A stretch of 64,000 bases of DNA from an uncultured Gammaproteobacteria bacterium (GTDB lineage: Bacteria > Patescibacteriota > Microgenomatia > Daviesbacterales > UBA10151): NCBI GenBank assembly GCA_964625535.1, contig CAZVEX010000001.1, positions 295 through 64,294 on the forward strand, given 5' to 3'. The first letter of the stretch is position 1; the number at the start of each line of letters is the position of its first letter. The translations under genes were made by a program, and so were the position numbers. The notes under the pieces are model-generated. The model searched no databases, had not been told where the DNA came from, and saw only the letters and a list, made by a program, of their open reading frames with translations. Positions 23,716 through 57,524 of this stretch are shown one piece after another.

Positions 23716-23876
23716 TGAAAAACGAACTTTATATTTTAACTGTTGCCATCCTTGCCTATCTCATTTGGGCCCTCTGGCACCATCGCCGGGACAAAAGTTT
23801 GACTTTGCCTATTTTGATAGAGTATCTTTTAACTGCTGCTCTTTCTTTAGTTTTATTAACAGGAGTTTTATTGTGA
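23715..23876 (+). CDS. small 53-aa two-TM membrane protein (below the ORF-track size cutoff)
   Basis: ATG overlaps the CAP-gene TGA (tgATG). It translates as MKNELYILTVAILAYLIWALWHHRRDKSLTLPILIEYLLTAALSLVLLTGVLL. Its stop overlaps the rfbA GTG start (ttGTGAaa), and AGGAG lies 8 nt before that GTG. Confidence 0.4.
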   Translation: MKNELYILTVAILAYLIWALWHHRRDKSLTLPILIEYLLTAALSLVLLTGVLL

Positions 23877-26498: not shown

Positions 26499-26530
26499 AC
26501 AGATGGTTGACGAGATAGCCTCCCATTAGA

Positions 26531-26536
26531 TATAGT
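26531..26536 (+). promoter_or_regulatory. -10-like TATAGT located 10 nt upstream of the gmd ATG (possible internal, leaderless-type promoter)
   Basis: Read from the sequence. No SD is present. Confidence 0.3.
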
Positions 26537-26546
26537 AGAGCAAGCT

Positions 26547-29868: not shown

Positions 29869-29890
29869 AATTTGATGTTAGCATATTACC

Positions 29891-42413: not shown

Positions 42414-42415
42414 TG

Positions 42416-44434
42416 ATGTTGATAATACAGACCTTGTTTCTTGGTTTACTTTTCCTGGTCATTTCGTGGTTTATTTTCTATAACATCGGTTACGCCGTAT
42501 TAGCTTTCAAAAGAAAAGATCTTGAGGATCAGGAGATTATCGCTTTGGCTTTTTCTTTGGGGTTGGTCGTATTTCTGGGAATAGCCCTTTTTTTGGGGCT
42601 CGTTAATTTAAGGTGGCTTCTTTTGCCGCTTGTTTTAGTAGCCGGTTTTTATAATCTGATTAAATACAAAAAAGAAGTTATCGCGCCATGGAAGATCTTT
42701 ATCCGGAGAAAGGTTTTGTTTTGGCTGATTATATTGGGAATTTTAGTCCAGGGGTTTATCAATTTCCCAAGCGGACTTCGCTATTCCGAAGGATTGCTTT
42801 TTTGGAGTTCTCAAGGCCACGACGGCATATGGCATGTCAGTTTAATGGAGGAGATTAGAAAAAATTTTCCTCCCCAAAACCCTATTTTTTCCGGGGAGAA
42901 GCTTTATAATTATCATTATCTGGTTGATGTTTTGATGGGCGATTTCTATCGGATTTTCCCGTTTTTTTCGCCGCTCGACCTGTATTTTAGATTTTTTCCA
43001 ATAATTTTCTCTTTCCTTTTTGGTCTCTGTGTTTTCTCATTTGTCAAAAGATGGCAAGCTAATTACTCAGTGGGATATTTGGCAGTATTTTTTACATATT
43101 TTACCGGAAGCTTCGGTTATGTGGTAACTTTTTTCAGGAATAAAAATTTATTCGGGGGGGAAACGGTTTTTTGGGCCTCTCAAGAAAACACTTTACTGGG
43201 TAACCCACCTCATGCCATTGCCCATATTTTTCTGGTGGCAATACTGCTTTGTCTGTTGTTGTATTTTAGTCAAAGGAAGATATTTTGGTTAATTATCGCT
43301 TTTATTTTGGGAAGTTTACTGTCCGGCTTTAAGGTTTCCGGTGGATTTGTCATGTTGACAGGAGTAGCAGCTGCAGCATTAGTGGATTTAATCTTTAATA
43401 GGAAATGGCACACAACTTTGCTTGCCGTGGTTCTGGGGTTTTCCAATTTTATAACTTTTAAAATGATGACCTCCAAAGAGGCAGCCTCATTTTTAATGTT
43501 TTTGCCCTGGTGGTTTATCAGAACCATGGTGGTGGATAAACTGGGTTGGATGGATCTGGAACTTCGCCGGCAGCACTATCTTTCCAAAGGGACATGGCAT
43601 GCCTATTTGAGAGTGTTTCAGCTTGAAGTAACAGCCTTTTTAATTTTTTTAGTGGGCAATTTGGGAATGAGAATATTGGGATTTTACGGATTGATAAAAG
43701 ATTTATTAACCAAAAAGTTTATCAAAAGTCCTATTGACGCAATGCTTTTTGTGTCGATGTTAACGGGATTTTTGATGGTTATTATCTTTGTGCAAAAGGG
43801 GATTATTTATAACAACATTCAATTTATCCAGTATTCTCTGCTGATCATGGGATTTTACGCTGCAGTATCAACTTATCAATTGCTTATGCGTTTTAAGAAA
43901 AAGCTGATAAGGATTATTATTTTGTTAATGATAGTTTTATTTTCGGTGCCGACAGTGATAGGAAATTTGAATGAGTTTTACGGGCCTGGCAGAAAGCCCC
44001 TGGCTATCATCAGTAATCGGCAGATTCAAGCATTGAGTTTTTTAAAAGCAAACAGTGAACAAAATGACATTGTTTTAACTGTGCCCTTTAATAAATATTT
44101 AAAAGATCGATACAAGAGTGAACCCAGGCCAATAAATGCCTGGTATTCTACGGCCTATGTTTCGGCGCTCACGGCGAGAAATACCTATTTTACTTCGGAG
44201 GAGCAGGCTTTAATTACCGGATACCCCACCGATAAAAAACTGGCGAAGGTAGAAGAGTTTTTTGCGCAAACGGATTTTTCCTACAATAAAAAATTTCTGG
44301 CAGAAGAAGGTATAAAATATTTATATGTTGTTAAAGATGAATTGGATAAACCGTTAAGCGTTCAAGAAAATAATTTGGAAATTATGTTTGAAAATACGGA
44401 GATAATTATCTTTAAAGTTAACCAAAGAGTATGA
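42416..44434 (+). CDS. GT-C-like polytopic membrane protein, stand-alone paralog of the membrane half of 38997..42413
   Basis: LFWSSQGHDGIWHVSL...NPIFSGE...YHYLVDVL is present. The C-terminal ...LEIMFENTEIIIFKV parallels ...LNLIFENQEILIYEV. Confidence 0.65.
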   Translation: MLIIQTLFLGLLFLVISWFIFYNIGYAVLAFKRKDLEDQEIIALAFSLGLVVFLGIALFLGLVNLRWLLLPLVLVAGFYNLIKYKKEVIAPWKIFIRRKVLFWLIILGILVQGFINFPSGLRYSEGLLFWSSQGHDGIWHVSLMEEIRKNFPPQNPIFSGEKLYNYHYLVDVLMGDFYRIFPFFSPLDLYFRFFPIIFSFLFGLCVFSFVKRWQANYSVGYLAVFFTYFTGSFGYVVTFFRNKNLFGGETVFWASQENTLLGNPPHAIAHIFLVAILLCLLLYFSQRKIFWLIIAFILGSLLSGFKVSGGFVMLTGVAAAALVDLIFNRKWHTTLLAVVLGFSNFITFKMMTSKEAASFLMFLPWWFIRTMVVDKLGWMDLELRRQHYLSKGTWHAYLRVFQLEVTAFLIFLVGNLGMRILGFYGLIKDLLTKKFIKSPIDAMLFVSMLTGFLMVIIFVQKGIIYNNIQFIQYSLLIMGFYAAVSTYQLLMRFKKKLIRIIILLMIVLFSVPTVIGNLNEFYGPGRKPLAIISNRQIQALSFLKANSEQNDIVLTVPFNKYLKDRYKSEPRPINAWYSTAYVSALTARNTYFTSEEQALITGYPTDKKLAKVEEFFAQTDFSYNKKFLAEEGIKYLYVVKDELDKPLSVQENNLEIMFENTEIIIFKVNQRV

Positions 44435-45987
44435 AGTATAAATTGGTTTTAATATTAATTCTTGTTTTGGGGTTTATGTTGCGAATTGTAGATACTAATA
44501 ATAATCCCCCCTCTCTTTATGGGGATGAATTGACAATCGCTCTGGATGCAAATTCCATTTTGCATACCGGAAAAGATCAGTTAGGTAATTTATTTCCACT
44601 GACATTTTCTATGGGAGCAGGTAGACCGGCCGGATATGTCTACGGTTCTATCCCGTTTGTGGCTTTGTTTGGGCCTAATGCTTTAGGGGTGAGAATGTTG
44701 TCAATTTTGTCCGGAATGGGCATTATATTTTTACTTTATCTGCTGGGTAAAAGATTTTTTTCGCCAAAAGTGGGTCTTGCAGCTGCATTTATTACTGCCG
44801 TTTCACCTTGGGATATATCGCTGTCGCGGGGAGGATTTGAAGCTCATTTCGCCCTATTTCTGGCCCTGGCGGGCTTATATTTTTTTATTGGAGCCAAAGA
44901 AAAAGGTATATTTTATGCGCTTTCGTTTTTGAGTTTTGGATTAACTTTCCACACTTATCCCACATATAAAATCAGCTTAGCTTTATTTCTGCCACTGCTT
45001 CTTTGGTATCAAGGCGGCGGGCATAAAAAGTATTTTCTTGTCGGGGTAGCTATCTTTTTCCTGTTAGGCATTTTAGCCCTCAGTCAAACTTTCATTGGAG
45101 GTTCTGAAGATAGATTTTCCGAGATCAATATTTTTTCTCAAGAAAAATTAAAAGAACAAATCATCCAAAAGATTAATTTTGAAAGAACTATTACCGGCTT
45201 ACCGGATAATTTGGCGCCGTATTTCCACAATAAGCCGGTGGAATATGCAAAAATTCTGATAGAAAATTATCTGCAGAATTTTTCCTTGGATTTTTTGGTT
45301 TTACATGGAGACAGAAACCCGCGCCACAATATGGCCACTATGGGAGAAATTTATTTGGCAGAGATGATCTTAATATTCTTTGGTATTTTAACTCTCTGGC
45401 AAAAAAACAGAAAAATACTTTTATTTTTTCTTTTTTGGTTAATGATTGCCCCTGTGCCAACAGCAATAATAGATGTGCCTCATGCGCTGCGAAGTTCTTT
45501 TATGCTGCCTCCTTTGTTGATTATTTCCGCTCTAGGGTTGCATTCTTTAATAAATAAAAAAAAGAAGATGTTTGTTGCAGGATTATTTATTATTTTTTTA
45601 ATTCAATTTGCATTTTTTGTCCAAAAATTATTTTTTCTCGCTCCCAACGAATACAGTCGATTTTGGTCTTACTCTGCCAAAAAAGCAGCAGAGGTAGCTT
45701 TGGAAAATAAAGAAAAGTATGATTTTATAATCCTTTCCGACAGCATTGATAATATTGAATTTGCCTATCCTGTTTATGCCACACTCGATCCGGCCCTTAT
45801 CATTTCACAAAATCAAAAAAGGAGTAAACTGAGGGGTTTTATGTTCAAAAAGTTTGAAAATGTATATATCGGGTATATGCCGGAGGCACAAGCTGAAGTG
45901 TTTTTACAAAGCCTTGAGGGTTCAGCTCTATATATAGGCTCCGGCCCCGATCAGAAAAAAAACGCTATTTTACTTCACCAGCGTTAG
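44431..45987 (+). CDS. GT39/PMT-like GT-C membrane glycosyltransferase
   Basis: SLYGDELTIALDANSILHTGKDQLGNLFPLTF in loop 1 carries the DE motif. It is related to ORFs 49893, 52947, 54593 and 55995. Confidence 0.65.
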   Translation: MKYKLVLILILVLGFMLRIVDTNNNPPSLYGDELTIALDANSILHTGKDQLGNLFPLTFSMGAGRPAGYVYGSIPFVALFGPNALGVRMLSILSGMGIIFLLYLLGKRFFSPKVGLAAAFITAVSPWDISLSRGGFEAHFALFLALAGLYFFIGAKEKGIFYALSFLSFGLTFHTYPTYKISLALFLPLLLWYQGGGHKKYFLVGVAIFFLLGILALSQTFIGGSEDRFSEINIFSQEKLKEQIIQKINFERTITGLPDNLAPYFHNKPVEYAKILIENYLQNFSLDFLVLHGDRNPRHNMATMGEIYLAEMILIFFGILTLWQKNRKILLFFLFWLMIAPVPTAIIDVPHALRSSFMLPPLLIISALGLHSLINKKKKMFVAGLFIIFLIQFAFFVQKLFFLAPNEYSRFWSYSAKKAAEVALENKEKYDFIILSDSIDNIEFAYPVYATLDPALIISQNQKRSKLRGFMFKKFENVYIGYMPEAQAEVFLQSLEGSALYIGSGPDQKKNAILLHQR

Positions 45988-46004
45988 TTGATAAGATTTA
46001 CACT

Positions 46005-46898
46005 ATGGTTCAAAAAATTTCAGCCGTAATAAATACCTTCAACGAGGAAGCAAATATCAAAAGAGCTATAGAATCTGTAAAATGGGCAGATGAAATAATA
46101 GTTTGCGATATGCACTCCAGTGATCAAACGGTTAAAGTAGCCAAAAAGTTTGGAGCGAAAATAGCTTATCATAAGAAAGAAGAGTATGTGGAGCTCGCTA
46201 GGAATTTTGCCATTTCCAAGGCTATATCCGACTGGATATTAGTTGTTGATCCGGACGAGGAGGTGCCGCAAAGTTTAGCCGTGAGATTAGTGGAAATCTC
46301 CCGGAAGATGAAGAGAATAGATTATGTCAGGTTGCCGAGAAAAAATACCATCTTCGGAAAATGGATGAAGGCCTCAATGTGGTGGCCGGATTACAATATC
46401 AGGTTTTTTAGAAAGGGGAAGGTTGCCTGGACTAATAAAATTCACCGGCCGCCCGAAGCGAGAGGTGCGGGGTTGGATCTTCCGGAAGATGAAAAGTGGG
46501 CAATTGTCCACCATCATTACGAGAGTGTCTCGCAATTCCTGCAGCGGATGGACAGATACACCAAGATTCAATCAATGGAGTTAAAAAAAGAAGGCTATAA
46601 ATTTAGCTGGCAAGATTTAATCAGTAAGCCGCTGCGAGAATTTTTAAGCAGGTTTTTTGCCAATAGAGGGTATGAAGACGGATTGCACGGTTTGGCCCTT
46701 TCTCTGCTACAAGCCTTTTCTTTTCTGGCAGTTTATTTAAAAGTATGGGAAATGGATAAGTTTAAGGAACAAGAACTTAAGCTGGAGGAGTTGGAACTAA
46801 TCAAAAAACAAGCAGGAGAGGAGTTAAACTATTGGTTTAACAAATCAGAGGCGCGGGGAAATCTATTTAAAACTTTTTTTAAAAAATTTAAAACCTAA
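46005..46898 (+). CDS. GT2 glycosyltransferase (WaaE/KdtX-like family)
   Basis: ISAVINTFNEEANI...LVVDPDEE is present. It is a paralog of 46900 and 57529. Confidence 0.7.
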   Translation: MVQKISAVINTFNEEANIKRAIESVKWADEIIVCDMHSSDQTVKVAKKFGAKIAYHKKEEYVELARNFAISKAISDWILVVDPDEEVPQSLAVRLVEISRKMKRIDYVRLPRKNTIFGKWMKASMWWPDYNIRFFRKGKVAWTNKIHRPPEARGAGLDLPEDEKWAIVHHHYESVSQFLQRMDRYTKIQSMELKKEGYKFSWQDLISKPLREFLSRFFANRGYEDGLHGLALSLLQAFSFLAVYLKVWEMDKFKEQELKLEELELIKKQAGEELNYWFNKSEARGNLFKTFFKKFKT

Positions 46899-46899
46899 T

Positions 46900-47706
46900 A
46901 TGTTAAGCGTGGTGATTATTGCCAAAAATGAGGAAAAAAGAATTACGGCCTGTCTGGAGTCGGTCAAATGGGCGGATGAAATTATAGTTTTGGATAATGG
47001 ATCGCAAGATAAAACTTTAGAGATTGTCAAAGAGTATACGGATAAGATATTTAAATTTAACGAAGAAGACTTTGCCAAACTGCGAAACAAAGGCATGGAG
47101 CAGGCAAAAGGGGAGTGGGTATTGTATTTAGATGCCGACGAGAGGGTATTGGATGATTTGAGGAAAGAGATAGAGGCCAAAATAACTTTTTCCGATTTTG
47201 GAGCATTTGCCATTTCCAGAAAAAATATTATTTTTGGAAAAGAGGTAAACTTTGGTCCTTATAAAAAAGATTGGGTGATCAGATTACTGCGAAAAAAAAG
47301 TTTTGAAGTTTGGGTGGGCAAGATACATGAGTACCCGAAATTTAATGGTGAGTTGGGCTATTCCAAAAACTTTCTTCTTCATTTAACCCACCGCGATGTT
47401 GATCAAATAGTTTTAAAAAGTTTGGAGTGGTCAAAAATTGATGCCAGGCTTCGCCTGGAAGCGCACCATCCCCCTATGAACGCGTTAAGATTTTTGAGAA
47501 TTCTAATAACAGAACTTTTCAATCAAGGAATTAAAAGAAAAGGTTTTTTTAACGGCACTATTGGAGTGATGGATTCTATTTTGCAGACATTTAGTCTGTT
47601 TATAACTTATGTCAGAGTATGGCAACTGCAGCAGCCAAAAACTCCGGATAGTATTTACGATGATACAGACAGAGAGCTGATTGAAAATAGATTTAACTAC
47701 AAATGA
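46900..47706 (+). CDS. GT2 glycosyltransferase (WaaE-like), tandem paralog
   Basis: LSVVIIAKNEEKRI...YLDADER is present. It has the same architecture as 46005. Confidence 0.7.
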   Translation: MLSVVIIAKNEEKRITACLESVKWADEIIVLDNGSQDKTLEIVKEYTDKIFKFNEEDFAKLRNKGMEQAKGEWVLYLDADERVLDDLRKEIEAKITFSDFGAFAISRKNIIFGKEVNFGPYKKDWVIRLLRKKSFEVWVGKIHEYPKFNGELGYSKNFLLHLTHRDVDQIVLKSLEWSKIDARLRLEAHHPPMNALRFLRILITELFNQGIKRKGFFNGTIGVMDSILQTFSLFITYVRVWQLQQPKTPDSIYDDTDRELIENRFNYK

Positions 47707-48782
47707 AAATTGCCATTTATTCACCTTACTTAGATACCTTTGGGGGAGGAGAAAGATACATTGCCACCATTGCCGAAGTTTTATCTTCTGACCAGGATGT
47801 TGATTTGCTATTAGATAAACATTTAATCAAAATAGGGTCAGATTATTTAAAATCAAATCTTTCCCAAAGATTTAATTTAAATTTGGAAAAAGTAAAAATG
47901 GTTGGTTCTCCTATGGGGGAAGGTTACAATTTTTTTTCCAGATTCTTCTTTCTTAGAAAATATGATTTTTTATTTTACTTGACAGACGGCAGTATATTTT
48001 ATCCCACAGCCAGGAAGAATATTCTTCACATTCAGTCACCAATTGAGGGACAGCCTGTCAAAAGTCTCTGGGGGAAAATAAAATTAAAAAAATGGGATTT
48101 AATAATTTATAATTCTAGGTTTACTAAAGATCATTCTGTCGCTCGCTGGCCTCTGTTTTCCAAAGTGATTTACCCGCCGGTTGACACGGAAGCAATCAAA
48201 CCGCTCAAGAAGAAAAAATATATACTGTCAGTTGGTCGCTTCTTCGGATATTTAAAAGATAAAAAACATGAACTGATGATAAAAGCTTTTGACAGACTTA
48301 AGCAAAATCTCAAAAGCCTTGGTTGGAGTTTACACTTGGCCGGATCTGCCAAAGAAGGAGATCAGGATTATTTAAAAAGCTTAAAAAATATGGCAAAGGA
48401 TTTACCGGTGAACTTTTATCCAAATCTATCGTTTGATCAGCTAGTTAAGCTTTATGGTTTCTCATCCATATACTGGCACGCGGCGGGGTATGGCGAAGAG
48501 GAAGCTACCAAAATGGAGCATTTTGGGATCTCCGTTGCCGAGGCCATGGCAGGAGGTTGCGTACCGGTGGTTATTGGCAAAGGAGGTTTAATTGAGATTG
48601 TTGATAATGGCGTAAATGGTTTTTTGTGGGATGACCCTTTGGATTTAGAAAGCAAAACTTTACAGCTAATGAGAGAGAAAATTTTATTGAATAAAATGTC
48701 AAGGGAAGCTGTCAAAAAAGCAGGTCATTTTAGCAAAGAAATCTTTGAGAAAAATATCAAAAGTGCGGTTAAAACCTTATGA
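47703..48782 (+). CDS. GT4-family (GT-B) glycosyltransferase
   Basis: EHFGISVAEAMAGGCVPV is the E-x7-E motif region of retaining GT4 enzymes. Confidence 0.7.
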   Translation: MKIAIYSPYLDTFGGGERYIATIAEVLSSDQDVDLLLDKHLIKIGSDYLKSNLSQRFNLNLEKVKMVGSPMGEGYNFFSRFFFLRKYDFLFYLTDGSIFYPTARKNILHIQSPIEGQPVKSLWGKIKLKKWDLIIYNSRFTKDHSVARWPLFSKVIYPPVDTEAIKPLKKKKYILSVGRFFGYLKDKKHELMIKAFDRLKQNLKSLGWSLHLAGSAKEGDQDYLKSLKNMAKDLPVNFYPNLSFDQLVKLYGFSSIYWHAAGYGEEEATKMEHFGISVAEAMAGGCVPVVIGKGGLIEIVDNGVNGFLWDDPLDLESKTLQLMREKILLNKMSREAVKKAGHFSKEIFEKNIKSAVKTL

Positions 48783-49900
48783 ACAAAATTTTAATTATTA
48801 TTTTGGTGGGGATATTTTTAAGAGTTTTATTAGCTTTTTCCACATTCCATCCTGATCTTTTGGCCTTTCATTTGGGCGGTAAGCTAGTGGGGGAGGGGAA
48901 CATCTTAAATTTATATGATTACTCCTCTAATGTGGCTACCCTCAATTATCCACCGTTAATTTATTGGTTTTTTGGTTTATTTAATTTTTTATCAATCTGG
49001 GGGATATGGTTACTGAAACTCCCCTATCTGATTTTTGATTTATTTTTAGGGTTGCTGTTATTCCGACTGGTTGAAGAAAAAAAGAAGGTATTGACCTTGG
49101 GATTGTGGATGTTTAATCCGGTCAGTCTTTATGCTACTTACATGATGGGTCAGTTTGATATTATCCCCGCATTTTTTACCGTATTTTCTTTTTATCTGGT
49201 GGCAAAAAATAGGCTCAAATGGGCTGCTTTTGTCTTAGGGTTCGGAGTTGCTTTTAAGCTTTATCCCGTATTTCTTCTTATTCCTCTTGTCATACTGGGC
49301 AAAACTTATTGGGAGAAATTCAAGCTCGCCGTTTTGGCGCTACTGCCTTATGCATTGTCAATTTTACCCTATATACAATCCCCCGGTTTTCGCCAAACTG
49401 CTCTTTTTGCCAATCAAAGCTCAAAAAGTCTTTACGCCGGAATCCCCGTATCAGGCGGTGAATCTATCCTTTTATTTCCCGCATCCTTAGTGCTTTTTTA
49501 TTTGTTGATCTGGAAAAAGAGCCTGGATAAAGTATCTTTTTGGAAGATTTACTTAATCCCCCTACTGCTATTTTTTATTTTTACTCACTATCATCCACAA
49601 TGGTTAATCTGGGTGAGCCCATTTTTGATTTTGGATTTAAGCCTTGAAAGATTTAAAAATTTATTACCTATTTTATTAATTGGTCTAAGTTGGTTTGGTT
49701 CGCTTTTCCTTTTTGATCCCTCCCTAACCGTTGGATTGTTTGCTCCCCTTTTCCCCGTTCTAGCGAATACTTCTGATATCTGGTTCTTGTTAAATGTAAA
49801 TGTAGATTATAATTTTTCAAGAAGCATTATACAAACTGTATTTGCATCCAGCGCTTTCTATTTAATATTTAGAAACTTTCCACGAAAAATAAATGTCTAA
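48779..49900 (+). CDS. polytopic membrane protein, GT-C-like (DUF2029/GT87-like?)
   Basis: 373 aa with ~11 TM helices. It has no soluble domain and no clear motif. Confidence 0.4.
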   Translation: MNKILIIILVGIFLRVLLAFSTFHPDLLAFHLGGKLVGEGNILNLYDYSSNVATLNYPPLIYWFFGLFNFLSIWGIWLLKLPYLIFDLFLGLLLFRLVEEKKKVLTLGLWMFNPVSLYATYMMGQFDIIPAFFTVFSFYLVAKNRLKWAAFVLGFGVAFKLYPVFLLIPLVILGKTYWEKFKLAVLALLPYALSILPYIQSPGFRQTALFANQSSKSLYAGIPVSGGESILLFPASLVLFYLLIWKKSLDKVSFWKIYLIPLLLFFIFTHYHPQWLIWVSPFLILDLSLERFKNLLPILLIGLSWFGSLFLFDPSLTVGLFAPLFPVLANTSDIWFLLNVNVDYNFSRSIIQTVFASSAFYLIFRNFPRKINV

Positions 49901-51386
49901 AAAACTTACTGTTGCTTTTTTTATCATTACTTCTTTTTGGTTTTTATTTACTTTTAAATTGACAGATGTCCCGCCCGGGATCAATGGAGACGAGGCAAAC
50001 ATCGGCCTAAACAGCGTCTTGATTGCCCAAACAGGCAAAGATGCCAGAGGTAGCGTCCTGCCGCTTTTTTCGTCAGTCCCGGATTCCTTTGACTGGAAAC
50101 AGCCGGTAACTGTTTATGCTACAGCCGTAGCTTTTAAAATATTTGGATCGTCTTACTTTGTATTGCGCTCAATTAGTGTCTTTTTTGCGCTTCTATCTGC
50201 ATTAACCCTTTTTTTATTAATAAATCAAATAAAGGGATTTAAGTTAGCCTTGGCGGGTTTACTTATTTTCGCAACCACCCCCATCATTATGATTCAATCT
50301 CATTTGGCTTTGGAAAACATTGCGCCGGTTCCCTTTATCTGCCTTTGGCTTTTAATGCTTTATAAATACCATATCAGCCAAAAAAGAAAATACCTCATAT
50401 TTTCAGCTGCCAGTTTGGGTTTGGCTCTTTTTTCATATCTTGGCTTAAGATTAATTACTCCTACCCTAGTGCTTGCTACACTATTGTTTTTATACTTTAG
50501 TAGCCGTAAACAGAAAACAAAGTTGGTTTTAAAGAAGTTGTTAATATTTATAGTAGCCCTTTTACCTTTTTTTATCTTGTTACTTTTGGCCAGAAGCCAA
50601 TATCCCGGGGTGATCTTGGGACTTTTCAGGCCGTATAATCTTTCCTCGTATCAAGATGTTTTCCTGCCTTATATTTCTTCTTTTGATCCATCATTCTTAT
50701 TCATAACCGGTGATGTGACGCCGTATCATTCAACCGGCAAGCATGGAGTATTTTTATTAGCATCTCTGCCGCTATTCGTATTAGGAATCATAAGAATTAT
50801 TCAAAAGAGAGATCTATTTTTAAGTTTTGTTTTAGTATCCTTTTTCTTAGTTCCTTTATTTTTCGGTTTAGGATCAACTATTCATAGGGGAAGTAGGTTA
50901 TTGAGCTTGGTGCCGCTTTTTGTGGTAGTGGCCACAATAGGTTTTGAATATATTCTGGCTTTCAAAAATATGCTCCTTAAAACTTTTTCGATATTGCTTG
51001 TAATTTTTCTGATTATATTAAATTATGGAGATTTCTTAAATGATTATTGGTATCATTATCCCCAACGGGTAAAACAGGAATTTGCTGCGCCTGTGCATAA
51101 AGCTTTTGAGTCATTAAAGCAGCTTTCAGATGAGAATAATTTACAACCGTTTATTCAGAATGATTTGCCTTTACAAAACCCCCTTGCCTTCTCTTTTTTC
51201 GAACAAGCATATTTTCCCAATCAATTGGAAAGATGGAAAAATGCCGCTTTAGCTAAAAATGGCATAATAATCCTGGTTGACTCCGCAGGCCTAGCTTCTT
51301 TGGATCCCTCAAGAATAATGGTGGAAAAAATTGCAGGAACGGATTATGCTTTAGTTACAAATAAATATTCGGATGAAAAAAATTAA
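49893..51386 (+). CDS. GT39/PMT-like GT-C membrane glycosyltransferase
   Basis: GINGDEANIGLNSVLIAQTGKDARGSVLPLF in loop 1 carries the DE motif. Confidence 0.6.
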   Translation: MSKKLTVAFFIITSFWFLFTFKLTDVPPGINGDEANIGLNSVLIAQTGKDARGSVLPLFSSVPDSFDWKQPVTVYATAVAFKIFGSSYFVLRSISVFFALLSALTLFLLINQIKGFKLALAGLLIFATTPIIMIQSHLALENIAPVPFICLWLLMLYKYHISQKRKYLIFSAASLGLALFSYLGLRLITPTLVLATLLFLYFSSRKQKTKLVLKKLLIFIVALLPFFILLLLARSQYPGVILGLFRPYNLSSYQDVFLPYISSFDPSFLFITGDVTPYHSTGKHGVFLLASLPLFVLGIIRIIQKRDLFLSFVLVSFFLVPLFFGLGSTIHRGSRLLSLVPLFVVVATIGFEYILAFKNMLLKTFSILLVIFLIILNYGDFLNDYWYHYPQRVKQEFAAPVHKAFESLKQLSDENNLQPFIQNDLPLQNPLAFSFFEQAYFPNQLERWKNAALAKNGIIILVDSAGLASLDPSRIMVEKIAGTDYALVTNKYSDEKN

Positions 51387-52824
51387 GATAAATTACTTTA
51401 AGACTTTTGTTTTCCTGTTGATTTTAATATTTACTTTTATCTTAAGGACGCATAACTTTGATAAAACTCCCCCACTGGGGCATTTGGAAGAAATGTTATA
51501 TGCCTGGTCTGGCCTTTATCTTGTAGAAACAGGCACTCCCGTATCCTGGTCAACTTTAGATTATCCTCAAAGGGCTGAAGTTTTTAAAGGGAAGGTGAAT
51601 TTTCAGGGAGGCCCGCCGGATGCTTATGTGAAACTATACAAACCCTGGTTAGACGAACCGCCGCTTTTCTCTTTGCTGGTAGGATGGGTAGCTCATTTAA
51701 ATCATGCCGATAGAGGTAGCATTATCCATTCGGCGTACATCAGGATCCCTTCGATTTTTATGGCAGTTTTGACCACAGTGATGATTTTTTTGGTAGCTCG
51801 CCTAGTTGCAGGTTATTGGACAGGGATTTTATCCATGATTGTATATGGAACCACTCCCATTGCGGTGTTTGCCTCCAGAATGGCTTTACCGGAAAATTTG
51901 ATTGCCCTGATCCTCATCACGATAGTTTATCTGTTAATCAAATTTGATGTTAAACCAAGATTGGTTTTACTGCTGCCACTACCTTTGTTAATAGGTCTGG
52001 CGGGTTTATCCAAACCGACCGGATTTTTGCTGCTGCCTTTGGCGGCGTATTTTGCTTTTATAAAAAAATACTATAAAGCTTGTATATATCTTGTTTTGAT
52101 AACTCTTTTGTTTGTTGGCGCTTATTTTGGCTACGGCATATATTACGACGCGGAAATCTTCTGGAAAATTTTCAATATTCAATCCTTTAGACCGGTGGGA
52201 TTTAGCGCCCTGGGATTTTTCTTTACCAGCCCTTCTTATGACATATATACTTTACAATTTGTGGATGGTTGGTACATATTCAGTTTGCTGTCGGCTTTTT
52301 ATTTTCTGTTTGTTAACAGAAACAGGCGAGAGTGGATTGTCAGCTTTGCATTTGTTTTTTGGTTAGTGATTGTGCTTTTGACCGGGGGAGAAGGGGATCT
52401 TTTGCCCTGGTATAGATTTCCCATGTTTCCTTTGCTTGCTATTTTGGGGGCTTTGGGTTTGAAGATTTTAGTAGAGAAAGCAAATTTTGCCACCACAGTT
52501 TTAGCTGCCGGTTTACTGCTGGGAAGCCGCCATTTGGTTGTTAACGCTTTTAGACCTAATATTTCTCCCACCAATTTTAGGATAGTTTTCGCTTCTTTAG
52601 TACTGCCGTCGGTATTTTATTCTATCTATAAAAAAGGATGGTTAAAACAAATTTGTAAAATCATCATTATAGGAATAATAATTACGGGCGCATATTTGAA
52701 TACCAGATTTATTTATAATGAGTTTGAGATAAGATGCGAAGGCGCGGAGTGTCCATTTGGTCCGCCCACTTCTCTTTCATCGATACATTTTCCCTTCATT
52801 TGGCGCTGGATCTCTATTAGATGA
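51373..52824 (+). CDS. GT-C membrane glycosyltransferase (ArnT-like)
   Basis: YKPWLDEPPLFSLLVGW in loop 1 carries a DE motif. It has 12+ TM helices, and the C-terminus has a Cys pair EIRCEGAECPFGPP. Confidence 0.55.
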   Translation: MKKIKINYFKTFVFLLILIFTFILRTHNFDKTPPLGHLEEMLYAWSGLYLVETGTPVSWSTLDYPQRAEVFKGKVNFQGGPPDAYVKLYKPWLDEPPLFSLLVGWVAHLNHADRGSIIHSAYIRIPSIFMAVLTTVMIFLVARLVAGYWTGILSMIVYGTTPIAVFASRMALPENLIALILITIVYLLIKFDVKPRLVLLLPLPLLIGLAGLSKPTGFLLLPLAAYFAFIKKYYKACIYLVLITLLFVGAYFGYGIYYDAEIFWKIFNIQSFRPVGFSALGFFFTSPSYDIYTLQFVDGWYIFSLLSAFYFLFVNRNRREWIVSFAFVFWLVIVLLTGGEGDLLPWYRFPMFPLLAILGALGLKILVEKANFATTVLAAGLLLGSRHLVVNAFRPNISPTNFRIVFASLVLPSVFYSIYKKGWLKQICKIIIIGIIITGAYLNTRFIYNEFEIRCEGAECPFGPPTSLSSIHFPFIWRWISIR

Positions 52825-52887
52825 AAGCAAACAGGTATTGGTTAATTATTCTAGGATCAAGAAAAGATTATCAAAACTTTTTACTTT

Positions 52888-52941
52888 TATAATCGCACTC
52901 CGGCATATTATGCCATTGGGCTTTAGGTTATGTTAACATAA
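52888..52941 (+). promoter_or_regulatory. promoter/operator region for the GT39 triplet: -10 TATAAT (52888-52893), then a 13-bp palindrome GGCATA-T-TATGCC (52902-52914) at about +1 to +20, and a 14-bp palindrome TTATGTTAACATAA (52928-52941) just before the start codon
   Basis: Both palindromes are perfect and verified base by base. This is the largest intergenic region in the island (119 bp). Confidence 0.5.
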
Positions 52942-52946
52942 AATTG

Positions 52947-54596
52947 ATGAGCAAAGTTATCTTCACGCTTGCATTAATAACACTCCTGGCCTTTGTCCTA
53001 AGGTTTTATAAAGTAACGGAAATACCACCTTCTCTAAATTGGGATGAAGTTTCAATCGGATATAATGCCTATTCCATCTTAAAGACTGGTAAAGACGAAT
53101 GGGGAAAATTTCTGCCGGTTCATTTTAAATCTTACGGAGAATATAAATTGCCCGGACAGGTCTATTTAGCCGTCCCCGGGATTGCCATTTTTGGATTAAA
53201 TGAGTTGGGAGTGCGGATTACGCCGGTAGTTTATGGCACTCTGACAGTCTTGGTGATGTTTTTTTTGGGAAGAATAATATTCAGAAGCCACTTAGCCGGG
53301 TTAATATCTTCTTTTCTGCTGGCTATTTCCCTCTGGCATATCCAACTGACAAGAGCATCTTTTGAATCATCCTTGGCCACATTATTTATTTCTGTGGGGA
53401 TGTGGTTTTTAGTAAAAGGATTTAAAGATGCTCGATGGTTAGTTGTATCTATGATACCGTTTGCTCTTTCTGTATTTACTTACAATTCTGCCCGGATTTT
53501 TACTCCGATGTTTTTAGTGGCCATACTTTTTATCTATTGGAAAAAATTAATTAAGTTTAAGAAATTTATCGTACCTTCACTCATTATTTTTGTAGCTTTA
53601 TTAACTCCGCTTACTCCTTATTTTTTTTCCGGAGAGAGAAGTGCCAGATATAAATTGGTCAGTATCACCGATGATCCCGGTTTGATCCCGAGAATTAATG
53701 AGAATAGAGGCCGATCGACCTTACCCAAACCATTGCCAAGACTTATACATAATAAAGTTACATATATTAGTTTTTATTTTGCGCGAAACTATCTGGCTCA
53801 TTTTACTCCCCAGTTTTTATTTTTATCAGGCGCCCCTCACAAGCAACATCATGTGCAAAATATGGGAGAGTTGTATTTATTCCAGGCGCCATTTTTATTG
53901 ATTGGTTTGTGGGGCCTGTTTAAGTTTAAACATAAATTTAAAGGTCTGCTTTTTTCCTGGGTTTTGTTGGCCTTTGTGCCGGTTTCCGCAACAGGGGACA
54001 GCATCCCGCATGCCTTAAGAACTTTGATTGCCGCTCCTTTTTATCAATTGGTTTCAGCCTTCGGATTTTTAATAGGGTGGAATTGGTTGAAGAAATACGG
54101 AGTTAAAATCAAGGTATTTTCTGCAATTTTTTTGGCGGTAGTGATTATTGTCAGTCTTAGGTTTTATTTAAATCAGTATTACAATATCTACCCTGATAAA
54201 TACTCAAGAGATTGGCAGTATGGGTATAAACAGGTTGTTGAATATATCAAAGAGCACAAGGATGAGTATGACTTGATAGTTTTTACCCGCCATTACGGCG
54301 AACCGCACATGTTTACCTTATTTTATTCTCAATATGATCCTGATAAGTATCAAAATGATCTCAATTTAGTCAGGTTTGAGACATATGACTGGGTGAGAGT
54401 CTTAAATTTTGACAAATTCTACTTTCCGGATTTGGGGGATAAAGGAACGCAGCAAAAAGATATTTTGGAAAAGTATAAAGATAAAAAAATACTGTTAATT
54501 GGTAAACCAGGCGATTTTCCTTACGGCGGCAGATCTCTTTTGACTGTCAATTTCCTGGACGGCAGCCCTGCATTTTTGATAGTAGACAATAAATGA
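52947..54596 (+). CDS. GT39/PMT-like GT-C membrane glycosyltransferase (tandem copy 1)
   Basis: SLNWDEVSIGYNAYSILKTGKDEWGKFLPVHFKSYGEYKLPGQVY is present. The ATG at 52947 is preferred to the TTG at 52944. Confidence 0.65.
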   Translation: MSKVIFTLALITLLAFVLRFYKVTEIPPSLNWDEVSIGYNAYSILKTGKDEWGKFLPVHFKSYGEYKLPGQVYLAVPGIAIFGLNELGVRITPVVYGTLTVLVMFFLGRIIFRSHLAGLISSFLLAISLWHIQLTRASFESSLATLFISVGMWFLVKGFKDARWLVVSMIPFALSVFTYNSARIFTPMFLVAILFIYWKKLIKFKKFIVPSLIIFVALLTPLTPYFFSGERSARYKLVSITDDPGLIPRINENRGRSTLPKPLPRLIHNKVTYISFYFARNYLAHFTPQFLFLSGAPHKQHHVQNMGELYLFQAPFLLIGLWGLFKFKHKFKGLLFSWVLLAFVPVSATGDSIPHALRTLIAAPFYQLVSAFGFLIGWNWLKKYGVKIKVFSAIFLAVVIIVSLRFYLNQYYNIYPDKYSRDWQYGYKQVVEYIKEHKDEYDLIVFTRHYGEPHMFTLFYSQYDPDKYQNDLNLVRFETYDWVRVLNFDKFYFPDLGDKGTQQKDILEKYKDKKILLIGKPGDFPYGGRSLLTVNFLDGSPAFLIVDNK

Positions 54597-56002
54597 GCAA
54601 ATTGACAAGAATTGTATTTATTTTAATAATACTTCTCTTTTTATTTACTCGGTTTTACAAAATAGGCGAAATTCCACCTTCGGTTTATTGGGACGAAGCT
54701 TCCATTGGTTATAATGCATACTCCATTGCCCAAACTCTAAAAGATGAGTGGGGGGATTTTTTGCCAATTCATTTTCGAGCCTTCGGAGAATTTAAATTGC
54801 CGGTTTATATTTACTCCACCGTACCCCTTGTTAAACTGTTTGGCTTAAATGAGTTTTCTGTGAGGCTTCCGGCAGTCTTATTTTCCTTGGGAGTAGTTAT
54901 TTTAACTTACCTTTTGACAAAGAGATTATTCAATAACACATCTGCTTTATGGAGCAGTTTTTTTGTGACTGTGTCCCCCTGGTTTTTTATTTTTTCCAGA
55001 ACCGGTTATGAGGCAACTGCCGGATTAATGTTTTATCTACTTGGGATCCATCTGTTTTTGTTTATTGCCAAAAAGAGCACCTTTATTCTTTTCTCAATTC
55101 TCGCTTTTATTTTAAGCGCTTATAGCTATAACAGTTTCAGGATCATTATTCCTCTAACCATTTTAATTTTATTGATAATGGAAAAAGATAATCTGATGAT
55201 TTTGCGAAAATCTGTCTTTGTAGTAATGCTTTCGCTTTTTATCTTGGGGTTAAGTATTTGGCCAATTTATAGATTATATGTTTATGATGCCGGCATTTCC
55301 AGGTTGCAAACCGTAAGCGGCGAAAGCGCGGATTTTCTTAAAAATTACCTCTCGCATTTTAGTCCCGATTTTCTAATATCGGGAGATAAAAATTTAAGAA
55401 GTCAGCAAAAAGATTTTGGTCAAATCTTTCCTTATGATTTTTTACTTTTACCGCTGGGCCTGATTTACATAATTAAATTCAAATCAAAATACGGACTGTT
55501 TAGTCTGGCGCTTTTTTTAATTTCTATCATTCCTGCTGCATTGACTAAAGAATCACCACACGGCCTAAGGGCAGTTTCCGCTGTCCCGTTCATTGCCATG
55601 ATTTCTGCTCTGGGGATGATTAAAATAAAAAAACTCTCCATCCCGCTGATGGCAATTTTTCTAATCTTTTTTATTAATTATTTTGCTAATTTTATTTATG
55701 TCTATCCCGGTCAATCCGCGATGGAGTGGCAATACGGCTATAAAAAATTTTTTACAGATAATAAAGAGCAGTTGGCCAAATACGATCAAATTATTATCTC
55801 CGACAAATATGCCCAGCCGTATATTTTTGCCTTGTTCTATTTGAAATACGATCCTGACAAATTTCAGGAAGAGGCGGTCAGAAACAGTGTTGATCAATGG
55901 GGATTTTCAACTGTGGCCAAATTTGGCAAATTCGAGTTTAAAAAAGACACTGAGATATTAAAAGAAAAACAAAACAAGGCTTTGATATTTGTCGATGAAT
56001 AA
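54593..56002 (+). CDS. GT39/PMT-like GT-C membrane glycosyltransferase (tandem copy 2)
   Basis: SVYWDEASIGYNAYSIAQTLKDEWGDFLPIHFRAFGEFKLPVYIY is present. It overlaps the upstream gene by 4 nt. Confidence 0.65.
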   Translation: MSKLTRIVFILIILLFLFTRFYKIGEIPPSVYWDEASIGYNAYSIAQTLKDEWGDFLPIHFRAFGEFKLPVYIYSTVPLVKLFGLNEFSVRLPAVLFSLGVVILTYLLTKRLFNNTSALWSSFFVTVSPWFFIFSRTGYEATAGLMFYLLGIHLFLFIAKKSTFILFSILAFILSAYSYNSFRIIIPLTILILLIMEKDNLMILRKSVFVVMLSLFILGLSIWPIYRLYVYDAGISRLQTVSGESADFLKNYLSHFSPDFLISGDKNLRSQQKDFGQIFPYDFLLLPLGLIYIIKFKSKYGLFSLALFLISIIPAALTKESPHGLRAVSAVPFIAMISALGMIKIKKLSIPLMAIFLIFFINYFANFIYVYPGQSAMEWQYGYKKFFTDNKEQLAKYDQIIISDKYAQPYIFALFYLKYDPDKFQEEAVRNSVDQWGFSTVAKFGKFEFKKDTEILKEKQNKALIFVDE

Positions 56003-57524
56003 TAAAGTTAAGCTTTTGCTTTTAATAATTGTAATTTTAGCTCTCGGAGCGAGAATCTATAAATTAGACAGTGTGCCTCCCTCACTTTCCTGGGATGAGG
56101 CGGCAGTGGGATACAATGCCTGGATTATTGCCCGCTTTGGTCAGGACGAATACGGCAAGAGTTTTCCTGTAGTTTTTAAATCTTTCGGTGAGTATAAAAA
56201 CCCGGTGGATATTTACTTCACCTCGCTTTCTGTAAAAGTGCTTGGTCTTAGCGAATTTAGCACGAGATTACCGGCAGCTATTTTTGGAATACTAAATGTA
56301 ATACTTCTATTTTTTCTGGTTAAAGCGTTATTTAATAACAATTGGCTTGGTCTTACCTCTGCATTTTTCTTAAGTATTTCCCCTTATAATATTCATTTTT
56401 CCCATTTCAATCATGAAGCCAATTTTGCTTTATTTTTCTTCATGCTGGGTTTATTGCTGTTTATCTTGACCCTTAAAGGTAAAAAACTTCTCATCTTAGC
56501 TGTGATATTTTTTATCTTAAGCTTTTTTTCTTATAGCGCCTCCAAAATGTTTATCCCGGTTTTTGTATTTTTTCTAGCAATAATCTACAGAAAAGAACTT
56601 TTAAAATTACTCAGGCAGCTACTTTTTTCAGTATGTTTAATAATTCTTCTCTCATTTTTTTTATTCTTAAACCCCCATGCTTTAGGAATAGATAGAGCCG
56701 CTCAAACCATGGGCAAAATAAATCTAGTGGCAGCGCAATATATCAGGCATTTTTCTCCAAATTTTTTATTTATTCACGGGGATAAAAACCCCCGTTTATC
56801 GGCTCAAGCAACAGGCGAATTTTACTACCTTGACGCTGCTTTTCTTGTTGCGGGTGCAATCTATATCTTTCGAAAAAGGTCAAAAGAACTTAAGACTTTA
56901 GCTTTATGGGCGCTCCTTGCTCCTTTACCGGGAAGCTTGACAGCAGAAGCTCCTCATGCCGGGCGAGCGATGTTTATGATGGGGAGTTGGCAGATAATTT
57001 CTGCAGTGGGTTTTTATTATATTGTTCGCTCCATCTCAAACCTAAAATATAAAAGAATAGTCATATTTGGCAGTTTGGTCGTATTAACCGTTCTTTTTGC
57101 CAATTTTCTCATTTATTATTTTGGAAATTATAGTAAACGTTTTGCAATTGAATGGCAATATGGCATGAAACAAATTGTGGAGTTTATTCAGGCAAATCCC
57201 CAGTATAATCATATCTACATGACCGACGCGCGCTATCAGCCATACATTTTTTTCCTTTATTATTTACAAACGCCGTTACCGGATTATTTGCGTACTGTAA
57301 CTTATAATAAGACGGAAATAAGTAGAAGTTATAATAATGTTTTTTCTTTTAATAAATATTTTTTTGGCGGATGGGATAGCGTTGAAAGCATGCCAAAGCT
57401 TGAGGTGTTATATGTTCTTACCCCCAGTCAATACGATGGGTTAAAATATAAATTGCAGTTTGCTATCAAAGAGACAATCTATTATCCTAATGAAACGGTG
57501 GCATTCTATCTGGTAAGCAAGTAA
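55995..57524 (+). CDS. GT39/PMT-like GT-C membrane glycosyltransferase (tandem copy 3)
   Basis: SLSWDEAAVGYNAWIIARFGQDEYGKSFPVVFKSFGEYKNPVDIY is present. The ATG at 55995 overlaps the upstream stop. Confidence 0.65.
   Translation: MNNKVKLLLLIIVILALGARIYKLDSVPPSLSWDEAAVGYNAWIIARFGQDEYGKSFPVVFKSFGEYKNPVDIYFTSLSVKVLGLSEFSTRLPAAIFGILNVILLFFLVKALFNNNWLGLTSAFFLSISPYNIHFSHFNHEANFALFFFMLGLLLFILTLKGKKLLILAVIFFILSFFSYSASKMFIPVFVFFLAIIYRKELLKLLRQLLFSVCLIILLSFFLFLNPHALGIDRAAQTMGKINLVAAQYIRHFSPNFLFIHGDKNPRLSAQATGEFYYLDAAFLVAGAIYIFRKRSKELKTLALWALLAPLPGSLTAEAPHAGRAMFMMGSWQIISAVGFYYIVRSISNLKYKRIVIFGSLVVLTVLFANFLIYYFGNYSKRFAIEWQYGMKQIVEFIQANPQYNHIYMTDARYQPYIFFLYYLQTPLPDYLRTVTYNKTEISRSYNNVFSFNKYFFGGWDSVESMPKLEVLYVLTPSQYDGLKYKLQFAIKETIYYPNETVAFYLVSK

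Follow-up and report, generated by a model that had tools for sequence, protein, structure and literature searches.

Five paralogous membrane glycosyltransferases in a co-directional gene array

The present analysis concerns five paralogous genes for membrane glycosyltransferases (GTs), located in a 64-kb stretch of contig CAZVEX010000001.1 (assembly GCA_964625535.1); this whole stretch is referred to as the window throughout. The window has a G+C content of ~37% and carries, between 29.9 and 62.5 kb, an array of 23 genes on the + strand, in which most adjacent genes overlap or sit a few bases apart. The five genes—labelled I, K, M, N and O according to their starts at 44431, 49893, 52947, 54593 and 55995, respectively (Table 1)—had been set down in a preliminary description of the locus as related open reading frames (ORFs) with a common loop signature and a common C-terminal domain. 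All five coordinates were confirmed, and mutual full-length BLASTP matches at 26-35% identity, with E-values of 1e-23 to 5e-78 that lie far beyond chance, identify the products as true paralogs. Paralog I matches M over its full length at 29% identity (E 3e-59), N is 32% identical to M and 35% to O, and K shares 26-27% identity with M, N and O (E 1e-24 to 2e-29). The start of I overlaps the stop of the GT-C gene immediately upstream (42413-44434), and M, N and O follow one another in direct tandem, as first described, with overlapping stop and start codons. Depending on whether translation begins at the ATG at 55995 or at a TTG at 55989, the product of O would comprise 509 or 511 aa, and its true start is uncertain because the exact sequence from 55995 is absent from the protein collection.

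The signature attributed to the first loop of all five proteins is exact in M and N and near-exact in O; in I and K only its core remains, which the alignment reduces to (W/G)DE...(G/A)(Y/L)...(K/Q)D..G..(L/F)P. The residues D33, E34, D50, Y73, R90, E140, Y179 and R358 (numbered according to the 52947 product, M) are retained in all five. A hydrophilic tail of 96-137 aa extends beyond the last hydrophobic segment in each protein, bearing out the shared C-terminal domain, and it is in this soluble domain and in the long external loop after the seventh transmembrane (TM) helix that the paralogs mainly diverge.

Table 1. Features of the window discussed in the text, with their coordinates, strand and supporting matches; single numbers denote gene starts.
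Feature	Coordinates	Strand	Evidence and remarks
Paralog I, 518 aa, GT-C, PMT_2 subfamily	44431-45987	+	PMT_2 38.6 bits; core residues kept
Paralog K, 497 aa, GT-C, PMT_2 subfamily, most divergent of the five	49893-51386	+	PMT_2 42.6 bits
Paralog M, 549 aa, first of the tandem trio, the modelled one	52947-54596	+	AF2 model, Foldseek, conservation map
Paralog N, 469 aa, second of the trio, 4-bp overlap with M	54593-56002	+	PMT_2 43.3 bits
Paralog O, third of the trio, overlaps N	55995-57524	+	PMT_2 48.4 bits; PMT 26.6 bits
Sixth PMT_2 GT-C, 483 aa, other subfamily, between K and the trio	51373-52824	+	PMT_2 42.3 bits
Intergenic "leader", 122 bp	52825-52946		only sizeable gap in the 23-gene co-directional array; contains palindromes TTATGTTAACATAA and GGCATATTATGCC
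GT2 (46005), GT2 (46900), GT4-type (47703) and GT87/PIG-M-like GT-C (48779), block between I and K	46005-49900	+	
GT2, 254 aa, follows the array in most loci	57529-58293	+	Glycos_transf_2 92.5 bits; orthologs 41-81%
GT4 (GT-B fold), cytoplasmic, conserved module member	58290-59360	+	Glycos_transf_1 92.2 bits; Glyco_transf_4
PIG-V-like GT-C, 391 aa, conserved module member	59320-60495	+	Mannosyl_trans2 41.4 bits
Wzx-type (MOP superfamily) flippase	60483-61760	+	Polysacc_synt 83.2 bits; conserved in L001, L002, L004
GT2, candidate donor synthase, like PgfS, ArnC, PpgS and Dol-P-hexose transferase	61684-62526	+	Glycos_transf_2 76.3 bits; orthologs 76-90%
Candidate donor-supply genes	27557-32784	+	Pfam; NCBIfam below cut-off; minus-strand ORF 28741-29868 left out
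Nucleotide-sugar genes rmlA (long form), rmlB, rmlC, Gmd-like 4,6-dehydratase	23765-27557	+	NCBIfam
Pair of large membrane proteins, paralogous to each other (1138 and 673 aa)	38997-42413 and 42413-44434	+	33% identical; no Pfam/NCBIfam match
GT-C genes above the PMT_2 gathering cut-off	29891, 32797, 35851, 44431, 49893, 51373, 52947, 54593, 55995		
GT-C gene	10135	-	counted as the tenth gene above the PMT_2 gathering cut-off, within 0.3 bits of it
GT-C genes	13276, 14750		sub-threshold PMT_2 matches
GT-C gene, PTPS_related/YfhO-like	34251	+	
GT-C gene, GT87/PIG-M-like	48779	+	
GT-C genes	38997, 42413	+	no Pfam family

A GT-C_A fold with conserved residues on the predicted outer side

The structure of M was predicted by AlphaFold (AF2) from an alignment of 77 sequences, giving a model with a predicted local distance difference test score (pLDDT) of 95.9 and a predicted template modeling score (pTM) of 0.94. 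In a Foldseek search against the PDB, this model matched more than 35 GT-C structures with a probability of 1.00—including AglB, STT3, PglB, ArnT, Pmt4, ALG9/12, DPY19, AftD and Emb—which places the protein in the GT-C_A fold and agrees with the initial reading of the five as GT-C-type membrane glycosyltransferases. The best E-values were those for AglB, STT3 and PglB (6e-8 to 1e-5, with TM-scores of ~0.5 and 10-15% identity), and the best TM-scores of all were those for ArnT (0.54-0.58, E 5.5e-7, 12-13% identity). The protein O-mannosyltransferases (PMTs) Pmt4, Pmt1 and Pmt2 were recovered with E-values of 2e-6 to 1.5e-3 and 16-20% identity, mostly over 255-268 N-terminal columns; their TM-scores normalised to M (TMq) amounted to 0.30-0.33, and one Pmt4 entry reached 0.46 at a root-mean-square deviation of 12 Å. 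Weaker E-values were obtained for ALG9/12, DPY19, AftD, Emb, AftA/B and PimE.

In the M model, TM1 spans residues 2-20 and is followed by the first external loop, in which D33 and E34 open helix 32-47, the first helix of the loop directly after TM1. The loop continues with a β-hairpin and a second, hydrophobic juxtamembrane helix (69-82); ten further membrane helices follow, with an external loop of 85 residues (228-312) after the seventh TM helix and a C-terminal α/β domain (419-549) that opens with a WQYG motif at 423-426. Short Lys/Arg-rich turns alternate with the conserved loops. Based on the positive-inside rule, applied to DSSP output and charge counts, we propose a topology of ~11 TM helices with the N terminus inside and the C terminus outside. 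Across the 77 diverse family members, D33 is conserved in 98% and E34 in 100%, the set D33, E34, D50, Y73 and R90 in 98-100% throughout, R358 in 98% and E140 in 89%. The positions conserved in 89-100% of members (D33, E34, D50, Y73, R90, P/W129-130, R136, E140, Y179, R234, R358 and G426) all fall on the predicted outer side. The placement of the Asp-Glu (DE) pair in the first extracytoplasmic loop, a central element of the preliminary description, is thus found in the model, where the pair begins the first external helix after TM1.

The start of the C-terminal domain bears on one alternative, according to which the paralogs would be oligosaccharyltransferase (OST)-like enzymes that attach a preassembled glycan to protein en bloc, WQYG taking the role of the OST motif WWDYG. 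Agreement with this alternative comes from the Foldseek E-values, the best of which (6e-8 to 1e-6) belong to the OSTs AglB, STT3 and PglB, and from the conservation of W423 (83%), Y425 (79%) and G426 (96%) among the 77 members. However, the structural matches to OSTs stay at TM-scores of ~0.5 and 10-15% identity, none of the five paralogs carries a WWDYG motif, and the WQYG motif is found in M, N and O only, being degenerate in I (WSYS) and absent in K. Moreover, the STT3 Pfam domain was matched by a single member out of 77, and five OSTs in a row would be unprecedented. We therefore regard an OST function of these proteins as very improbable.

A distinct branch of the PMT_2 superfamily

All five paralogs score above the gathering cut-off of the Pfam family PMT_2 (PF13231; 34.5-48.4 bits vs 26.1), and two of them also match PF02366 (PMT; 30.3 and 26.6 bits vs a cut-off of 22.7). 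Among the 77 relatives, PMT_2 was detected in 67 and PF02366 in 45 (E<=0.01). NCBIfam models yielded only far-sub-threshold matches to the five (Agl23, archaeal STT3 and the LA_3751 family).

The preliminary description had assigned the five to family GT39, and in this reading they would be bona fide protein O-mannosyltransferases that transfer mannose from polyprenyl-phosphate-mannose to Ser/Thr residues of secreted or surface proteins, each with substrates of its own. Several features are shared with the PMTs (yeast Pmt1/2/4 and MtPMT of M. tuberculosis): loop 1 opens with an Asp-Glu pair, the TM helix after it contains a conserved Arg, and an 11-TM core has 7 + 4 helices around a long external loop. 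HMMER aligned the DE pair of the family with that of yeast Pmt4 (LRFYKL..P..nWDEvsiG vs ARFYKIWYPKEVVFDEVHFG), the stretch alone not being significant, and the counterpart of R90 in this alignment is the Arg conserved in TM2 of Pmt4. The matches to PF02366 point in the same direction, as does the name 'glycosyltransferase family 39 protein' under which NCBI lists some M orthologs; 'phospholipid carrier-dependent glycosyltransferase' is another name in use there. In addition, protein glycosylation in C. bescii depends on a bacterial CAZy GT39 protein of comparable length, and a secreted, membrane-anchored protein with the linker SASSPSPTPSPSPSPSTTS is encoded in the window.

However, the same comparisons contain points that argue against membership of GT39. 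The PMT family is defined by PF02366 together with PF16192 (PMT_4TMC), jointly covering 11 TM helices (PMC12331936), and PMT_4TMC was detected in none of the five paralogs and none of the 77 relatives. The five also lack the MIR domain and possess an extra C-terminal domain of 130 aa that is absent from PMTs. The loop-1 DE pair, aligned to the FDEVHFG motif of Pmt4, is common to other GT-C_A families and so is not diagnostic of GT39. Likewise, E. coli ArnT, included as a control, scored 211 bits on PF02366 and 37 bits on PMT_2, so that a weak PF02366 match is uninformative on the choice between GT39 and GT83. In a profile search of all PDB chains, ArnT was the sole significant match (E 2.4e-5 over ~160 residues), followed by STT3 (E 4.7e-3) and Pmt4 (E 0.033), and the Foldseek alignments to PMTs are limited to the N-terminal half. 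Nor do the genes nearby point to mannose: those for sugar metabolism comprise rmlA, rmlB and rmlC, a gene for a Gmd-like dehydratase and galE, and the proposal of mannose as the transferred sugar finds no support here; the neighbouring genes for Wzx, GT4, PIG-V-like and GT87-like proteins are, in turn, typical of glycan assembly. Taken together, the GT39 assignment is unlikely to be correct. Of the alignment and clustering analysis suggested at the outset, the part concerning the position of the DE pair upheld the earlier proposal, and the part concerning the closest relatives did not—the nearest PDB sequence being ArnT, of family GT83, rather than a GT39 enzyme.

This last result raises the alternative that the paralogs are ArnT-type (GT83) enzymes modifying the head group of a membrane lipid or lipoglycan, e.g., with a cationic or neutral sugar for control of envelope charge. 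Like ArnT (PDB 5EZM/5F15), they combine the GT-C_A fold with a soluble domain after the last TM helix, and a monosaccharide-phosphate-polyprenol donor is counted as a further likeness. ArnT is the sole significant sequence match in the PDB and has the best global TM-score (0.57/0.58), and ArnC-like GT2 genes lie nearby. Yet the similarity is distant: hhalign compared the family with E. coli ArnT at a probability of 44% (E 2.3e-4) over only 144 columns, structural identity amounts to 12-13%, the five score 0-30 bits on PF02366 where ArnT scores 211, and they have ~11 TM helices instead of 13. Furthermore, with the E. coli arn operon as the comparison, no homologs of arnA, arnB or arnD were seen among the window ORFs scanned. 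Bacteria of the Candidate Phyla Radiation (CPR) are not known to possess lipid A, which also speaks against a GT83-type role, and we hold such a role to be decidedly improbable.

These results show that the five paralogs are a distinct, uncharacterised branch of the PMT_2 (PMT/ArnT-like) GT-C_A superfamily that is widespread in Microgenomates and a demonstrable member of neither GT39 nor GT83; the branch resembles PMTs in TM count and DE motif, and ArnT and the oligosaccharyltransferases in its C-terminal soluble domain. The label 'glycosyltransferase family 39 / dolichyl-phosphate-mannose-protein mannosyltransferase' therefore overstates what is known, and neither the sugar nor the acceptor should be read from the name.

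Conservation and age of the tandem paralogs

An exhaustive HMMER search for family members returned 11,593 cluster representatives at E<=1e-3, of which 2,914 also passed E<=1e-30. A large number of the matches extend to the very end of the query, which makes the C-terminal domain part of the family. Related loci were retrieved with a 12-sequence subset alignment, and the 78 closest all derive from Microgenomates-type Patescibacteria (Davies-, Woese-, Shapiro-, Roizman-, Chisholm- and Amesbacteria). Within this set of 78 loci, Davies- and Woesebacteria preserve the gene order M-N-O-GT2-GT4-PIG-V-like, and more distant Microgenomates have three to six tandem members of the subfamily followed by the same GT2-GT4-PIG-V-like module (~78 loci overall). 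Many bulk-assembled metagenome-assembled genomes (MAGs) titled 'uncultured Gammaproteobacteria bacterium', and one titled 'Clostridia', likewise contain a Microgenomates-type array at 55-74% identity and with unchanged gene order (e.g., L007, L010, L011, L015 and L016); the organism labels on those records look wrong.

M, N and O have one-to-one positional orthologs. M is 100% identical to an NCBI protein encoded on a 192.5-kb contig, and its orthologs with 70-83% identity come from MAGs of Candidatus Daviesbacteria, the lineage (Microgenomates, CPR) to which the window belongs; at three other Daviesbacteria loci (L001, L002 and L004), ortholog identity is 71-83% for M, 50-66% for N and 46-71% for O, and orthologs of I and K are 51-71% identical (I 70% in L004; K 51-71% in L002 and L004). 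The paralogs, by comparison, are mutually only ~31-35% identical within the trio. Separate ortholog lineages with a higher identity than that between paralogs imply that the duplications are ancient and that every copy is under selection. The earlier suggestion of several specificities accords with this picture, in that old, individually conserved paralogs that retain the core residues fit distinct, non-redundant roles, without those roles themselves being shown. Given the divergent external loop and C-terminal domain and the separate lineages, the paralogs most likely differ in the sugar, the linkage or the acceptor position.

Genomic context and candidate donor-supply genes

The density of GT-C-type genes in the window is unusually high: 17 of them, the five paralogs included, lie between 10135 and 60495 on both strands (Table 1). 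The synthase-like GT2 genes, the GtrA domain and Wzx-type flippases and the GT-C genes are encoded together, the synthase function being assigned by homology. Downstream of the trio, the GT2 at 57529 lacks a membrane anchor and falls outside the DPM1/GtrB type, with only sub-threshold NCBIfam matches; orthologs of the PIG-V-like protein (33-84%) are found downstream of the GT4 gene in most loci. A second Wzx-type flippase gene is located at 37550, and the block of GT genes between I and K is conserved in L002 and L004.

Several further genes could supply lipid-linked donors. The product of 27557-28744 (+, 395 aa) combines GT2 with a GtrA/DPMS transmembrane domain (GtrA_DPMS_TM 73.2 bits), so that, as judged from its domains, a single protein joins the predicted synthase and the putative flippase of a Gtr-type system; its gene directly follows those for rmlA, rmlB, rmlC and the Gmd-like dehydratase. 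Two of these exceed the NCBIfam cut-off (rmlA, TIGR01208, 343 bits; rmlB, TIGR01181, 448.6 bits), and rmlC (141 bits vs a cut-off of 155.75) and Gmd (313 bits vs 415) remain below theirs; GalE is also encoded in the window. The 712-aa product of 29891-32029 (+) consists of an ArnC/PgfS-like GT2 (residues 7-167) fused to a PMT_2/PMT GT-C (residues 298-457), a fusion that provides a direct argument for the coupling of synthase and transferase, and 32026 encodes another ArnC/PgfS-like GT2. The preliminary description had placed DPM1-like synthases near the array. This statement holds for the synthase-like GT2s at 61684, 32026 and 27557 and for the N-terminal domain of the 29891 product, and it fails for the GT2s that adjoin the paralogs (46005, 46900 and 57529), which are of another type.

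Between K and the trio lies a sixth PMT_2 gene, 51373, whose product shows no more than marginal BLAST similarity to the five paralogs, including K. It has EE in place of DE, has lost D50, Y73, E140, Y179 and R358, and ends in a 35-aa tail with no C-terminal domain. The possibility that 51373 is an insertion unique to this genome was dropped, since orthologs with 47-58% identity occur just upstream of M in several other Microgenomates loci—in some of these loci only, and in none of L001, L002 and L004. A second tandem GT-C pair, at 34251-37548 (+), consists of paralogs that are 33% identical (E 4e-92) and match PTPS_related/YfhO.

Immediately upstream of paralog I, the products of 38997 and 42413 form a family of ~386 homolog clusters, and the few that carry an organism name come from Microgenomates or other Patescibacteria. 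Its GT-C nature emerged only from structure prediction. The AF2 model of the 42413 product (pLDDT 90.4) adopts a GT-C_A fold, with the DPY19 C-mannosyltransferase (8.7e-9) and AglB (1.1e-8) as the best Foldseek matches, followed by STT3 and PglB, and its C-terminal globular domain matches the C-terminal domain of AglB (3vu0) with a probability of 0.96-0.99. The motifs GHDGxWH, NYHY and PWWF are invariant in the family and WWDYG is absent; a profile comparison with the trio family returned a probability of 1.5%. On the strength of the model, this looks like an unannotated GT-C family.

The region before the trio had been described as a palindrome-bearing leader. The interval does contain a perfect 14-nt palindrome (TTATGTTAACATAA, 52928-52941) besides GGCATATTATGCC, but palindromes of this kind are expected at a comparable frequency by chance, the window holding 12 perfect 14-nt palindromes vs 6.8 +/- 2.5 in first-order Markov simulations. 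The motif is present as a single copy in the window, and 52 of 100 shuffled sequences gave at least one match at two mismatches. For the 126-nt leader RNA, the predicted fold has no advantage over that of shuffled sequence (z = +0.64), a promoter/terminator scan was no richer than shuffled sequence, and an Rfam scan of the window gave no match. Conservation is likewise lacking: the palindrome occurs in none of 84 related loci, the alignment of upstream regions has no conserved block, and in relatives the gap before the trio measures 7-16 bp (L002 and L004) or the upstream gene is divergent. A regulatory role of the palindrome or leader was therefore rejected—the palindrome is real, at chance level and not conserved. 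The gap before M may hold an internal promoter, although nothing tested supports one.

A proposed multi-component glycosylation locus

Drawing on the fold, the residue conservation and the gene neighbourhood, we consider it probable that the five are paralogous GT-C_A-fold membrane glycosyltransferases that use lipid-linked sugar donors within a multi-component locus for the glycosylation of a surface glycan. The proposed mechanism has three steps. First, cytoplasmic GT2s would charge polyprenyl phosphate with a monosaccharide taken from a nucleotide sugar, as their homology to the ArnC, PgfS and Dol-P-hexose synthase families suggests. The lipid-linked sugar would then be flipped by the GtrA-type domain of the 27557 product or by the Wzx-type flippases. 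Finally, each paralog would pass the sugar on to an acceptor located at the external membrane surface; the invariant Asp-Glu pair together with D50, R90, E140 and R358, at the positions observed in the predicted fold, would presumably take part in the chemistry. Of the multi-enzyme glycosylation machine postulated in the preliminary description, the GT-C fold, the loop-1 acid, the several specificities and the donor genes nearby are thus retained, and the identification with GT39 protein O-mannosyltransferases is not supported.

The closest parallels in organisation are found among monoderm bacteria. PMT_2-type GT-Cs of these organisms (GtlB, GttB, GacL, CsdD/F and GtsC) glycosylate lipoteichoic acid, wall teichoic acid, rhamnan and secondary wall polymers, working with GT2 undecaprenyl-phosphate-sugar synthases and flippases (PMC8035078). 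Compared by description only, the monoderm systems (GtlB, GttB, GtcC, GacL, CsdD/CsdF, GtsC and YkcB; PMC8035078) share with the present locus the PMT_2 Pfam domain, the partnership of GT2 polyprenyl-phosphate-sugar synthases with GtrA- or Wzx-type flippases, the location at the outer face of a single membrane and an acceptor specificity that is not predictable from sequence; they differ in consisting mostly of single GT-A/GT-C pairs, whereas three to six tandem paralogs occur here, in a locus with 17 GT-C genes. The neighbouring GT2, GT4, PIG-V-like, GT87-like, Wzx and rml genes place the locus among multi-component transmembrane glycosylation systems and stepwise extracytoplasmic assembly lines.

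With regard to the acceptor, the odds lean slightly towards a cell-surface glycan, either growing or finished, that is, a lipid- or wall-linked glycopolymer elaborated stepwise outside the cytoplasm; a glycan is favoured because the genes conserved alongside the paralogs encode Wzx, GT4, and GT-Cs of the PIG-V-like and GT87-like types. Direct O-glycosylation of proteins is a good deal less probable, with Ser/Thr-rich surface proteins as a live alternative. Precedents exist for both classes: the YfhO family comprises GT-Cs that act on teichoic acids and others that modify disordered, Ser/Thr-rich regions of membrane proteins (PMC12041528), and a 556-aa CAZy GT39 protein of C. bescii is needed for the glycosylation of cellulase linkers (PMC6151902). 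By its description, this protein (Cbes_1864) resembles the paralogs in its similar length, its 10-12 predicted TM helices and its structural homology to AglB/PglB, and the linkers that require it are Ser/Thr/Pro-rich (PMC6151902); it differs from them in being encoded by a single gene beside its substrate genes, not in an array.

Several points weigh against the proposed glycosylation locus. All GT2 matches to polyprenyl-phosphate-sugar synthase equivalogs are below the curated cut-offs, and none of the window ORFs scanned could be identified as an initiating phosphoglycosyltransferase, a Wzy polymerase or a ligase. For M, topology and active-site geometry were read from secondary structure and charge counts, not from coordinate superposition. 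Moreover, the YfhO and C. bescii precedents span glycan and protein acceptors, so the acceptor class is unreadable from the family.

A more far-reaching variant, which we consider improbable, would be an assembly line resembling N-glycosylation in the endoplasmic reticulum (ER), operating in a CPR bacterium with a genome of ~1 Mb. In such a line, cytoplasmic GT2 and GT4 enzymes may start a lipid-linked oligosaccharide that Wzx flips to the outer face; three to six GT-C paralogs and the PIG-V-like and GT87-like GT-Cs may then extend the glycan outside the cell by one linkage each, with polyprenyl-phosphate-sugars as donors, paralleling ALG3/9/12/6/8/10. Once complete, the glycan may be handed over en bloc by the 38997/42413 family, either to surface proteins or to the wall. 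The ER-lumenal ALG series and the mycobacterial PimE/GT87/Emb/Aft enzymes likewise comprise several GT-C paralogs, presumably with one linkage each, acting outside the cytoplasm on polyprenyl-phosphate-monosaccharide donors; ALG9/12, AftA/B/D, Emb and PimE are among the Foldseek matches, and the cluster contains GT87-like and PIG-V-like genes. This is an analogy of organisation only, with no orthology implied. By a similar analogy with Pmt1-Pmt2, the products of the translationally coupled trio might form a hetero-oligomer.

The proposed surface-glycosylation locus bears on the biology of these organisms. CPR bacteria (Patescibacteria) have tiny genomes, and those in cultivation grow in attachment to other cells. 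This lifestyle probably depends to a large extent on their surface molecules, about which next to nothing is known. The presence of 17 GT-C genes in 64 kb, together with the conservation of the core array across Microgenomates, implies an important and complex surface glycan or glycoprotein. An exceptional GT-C density and a conserved array are noteworthy in minimal-genome organisms, and a literature search, incomplete in its coverage, found no description of GT-C arrays or of such a GT-C density in Patescibacteria or Microgenomates.

Candidate protein acceptors

Should proteins be glycosylated by the paralogs, the product of 16640-17692 (minus strand), put forward in the preliminary description as a possible acceptor, was the only credible Ser/Thr/Pro-rich candidate in a search of the window. 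It has a signal peptide, the Ser/Pro/Thr linker introduced above and a C-terminal membrane anchor, with no Pfam or NCBIfam match, and its gene adjoins those for an M23 peptidase, FtsX and FtsE. Separately, a 255-aa ORF without a Pfam match, at 5817-6584 (minus strand) between serS and secA, includes an extended polyproline run (PPPPPPAPPPPPPPPPTPSP). The G+C content of the window is highest in this part (0.48), and the ORF may be either a real proline-rich protein or a spurious ORF.

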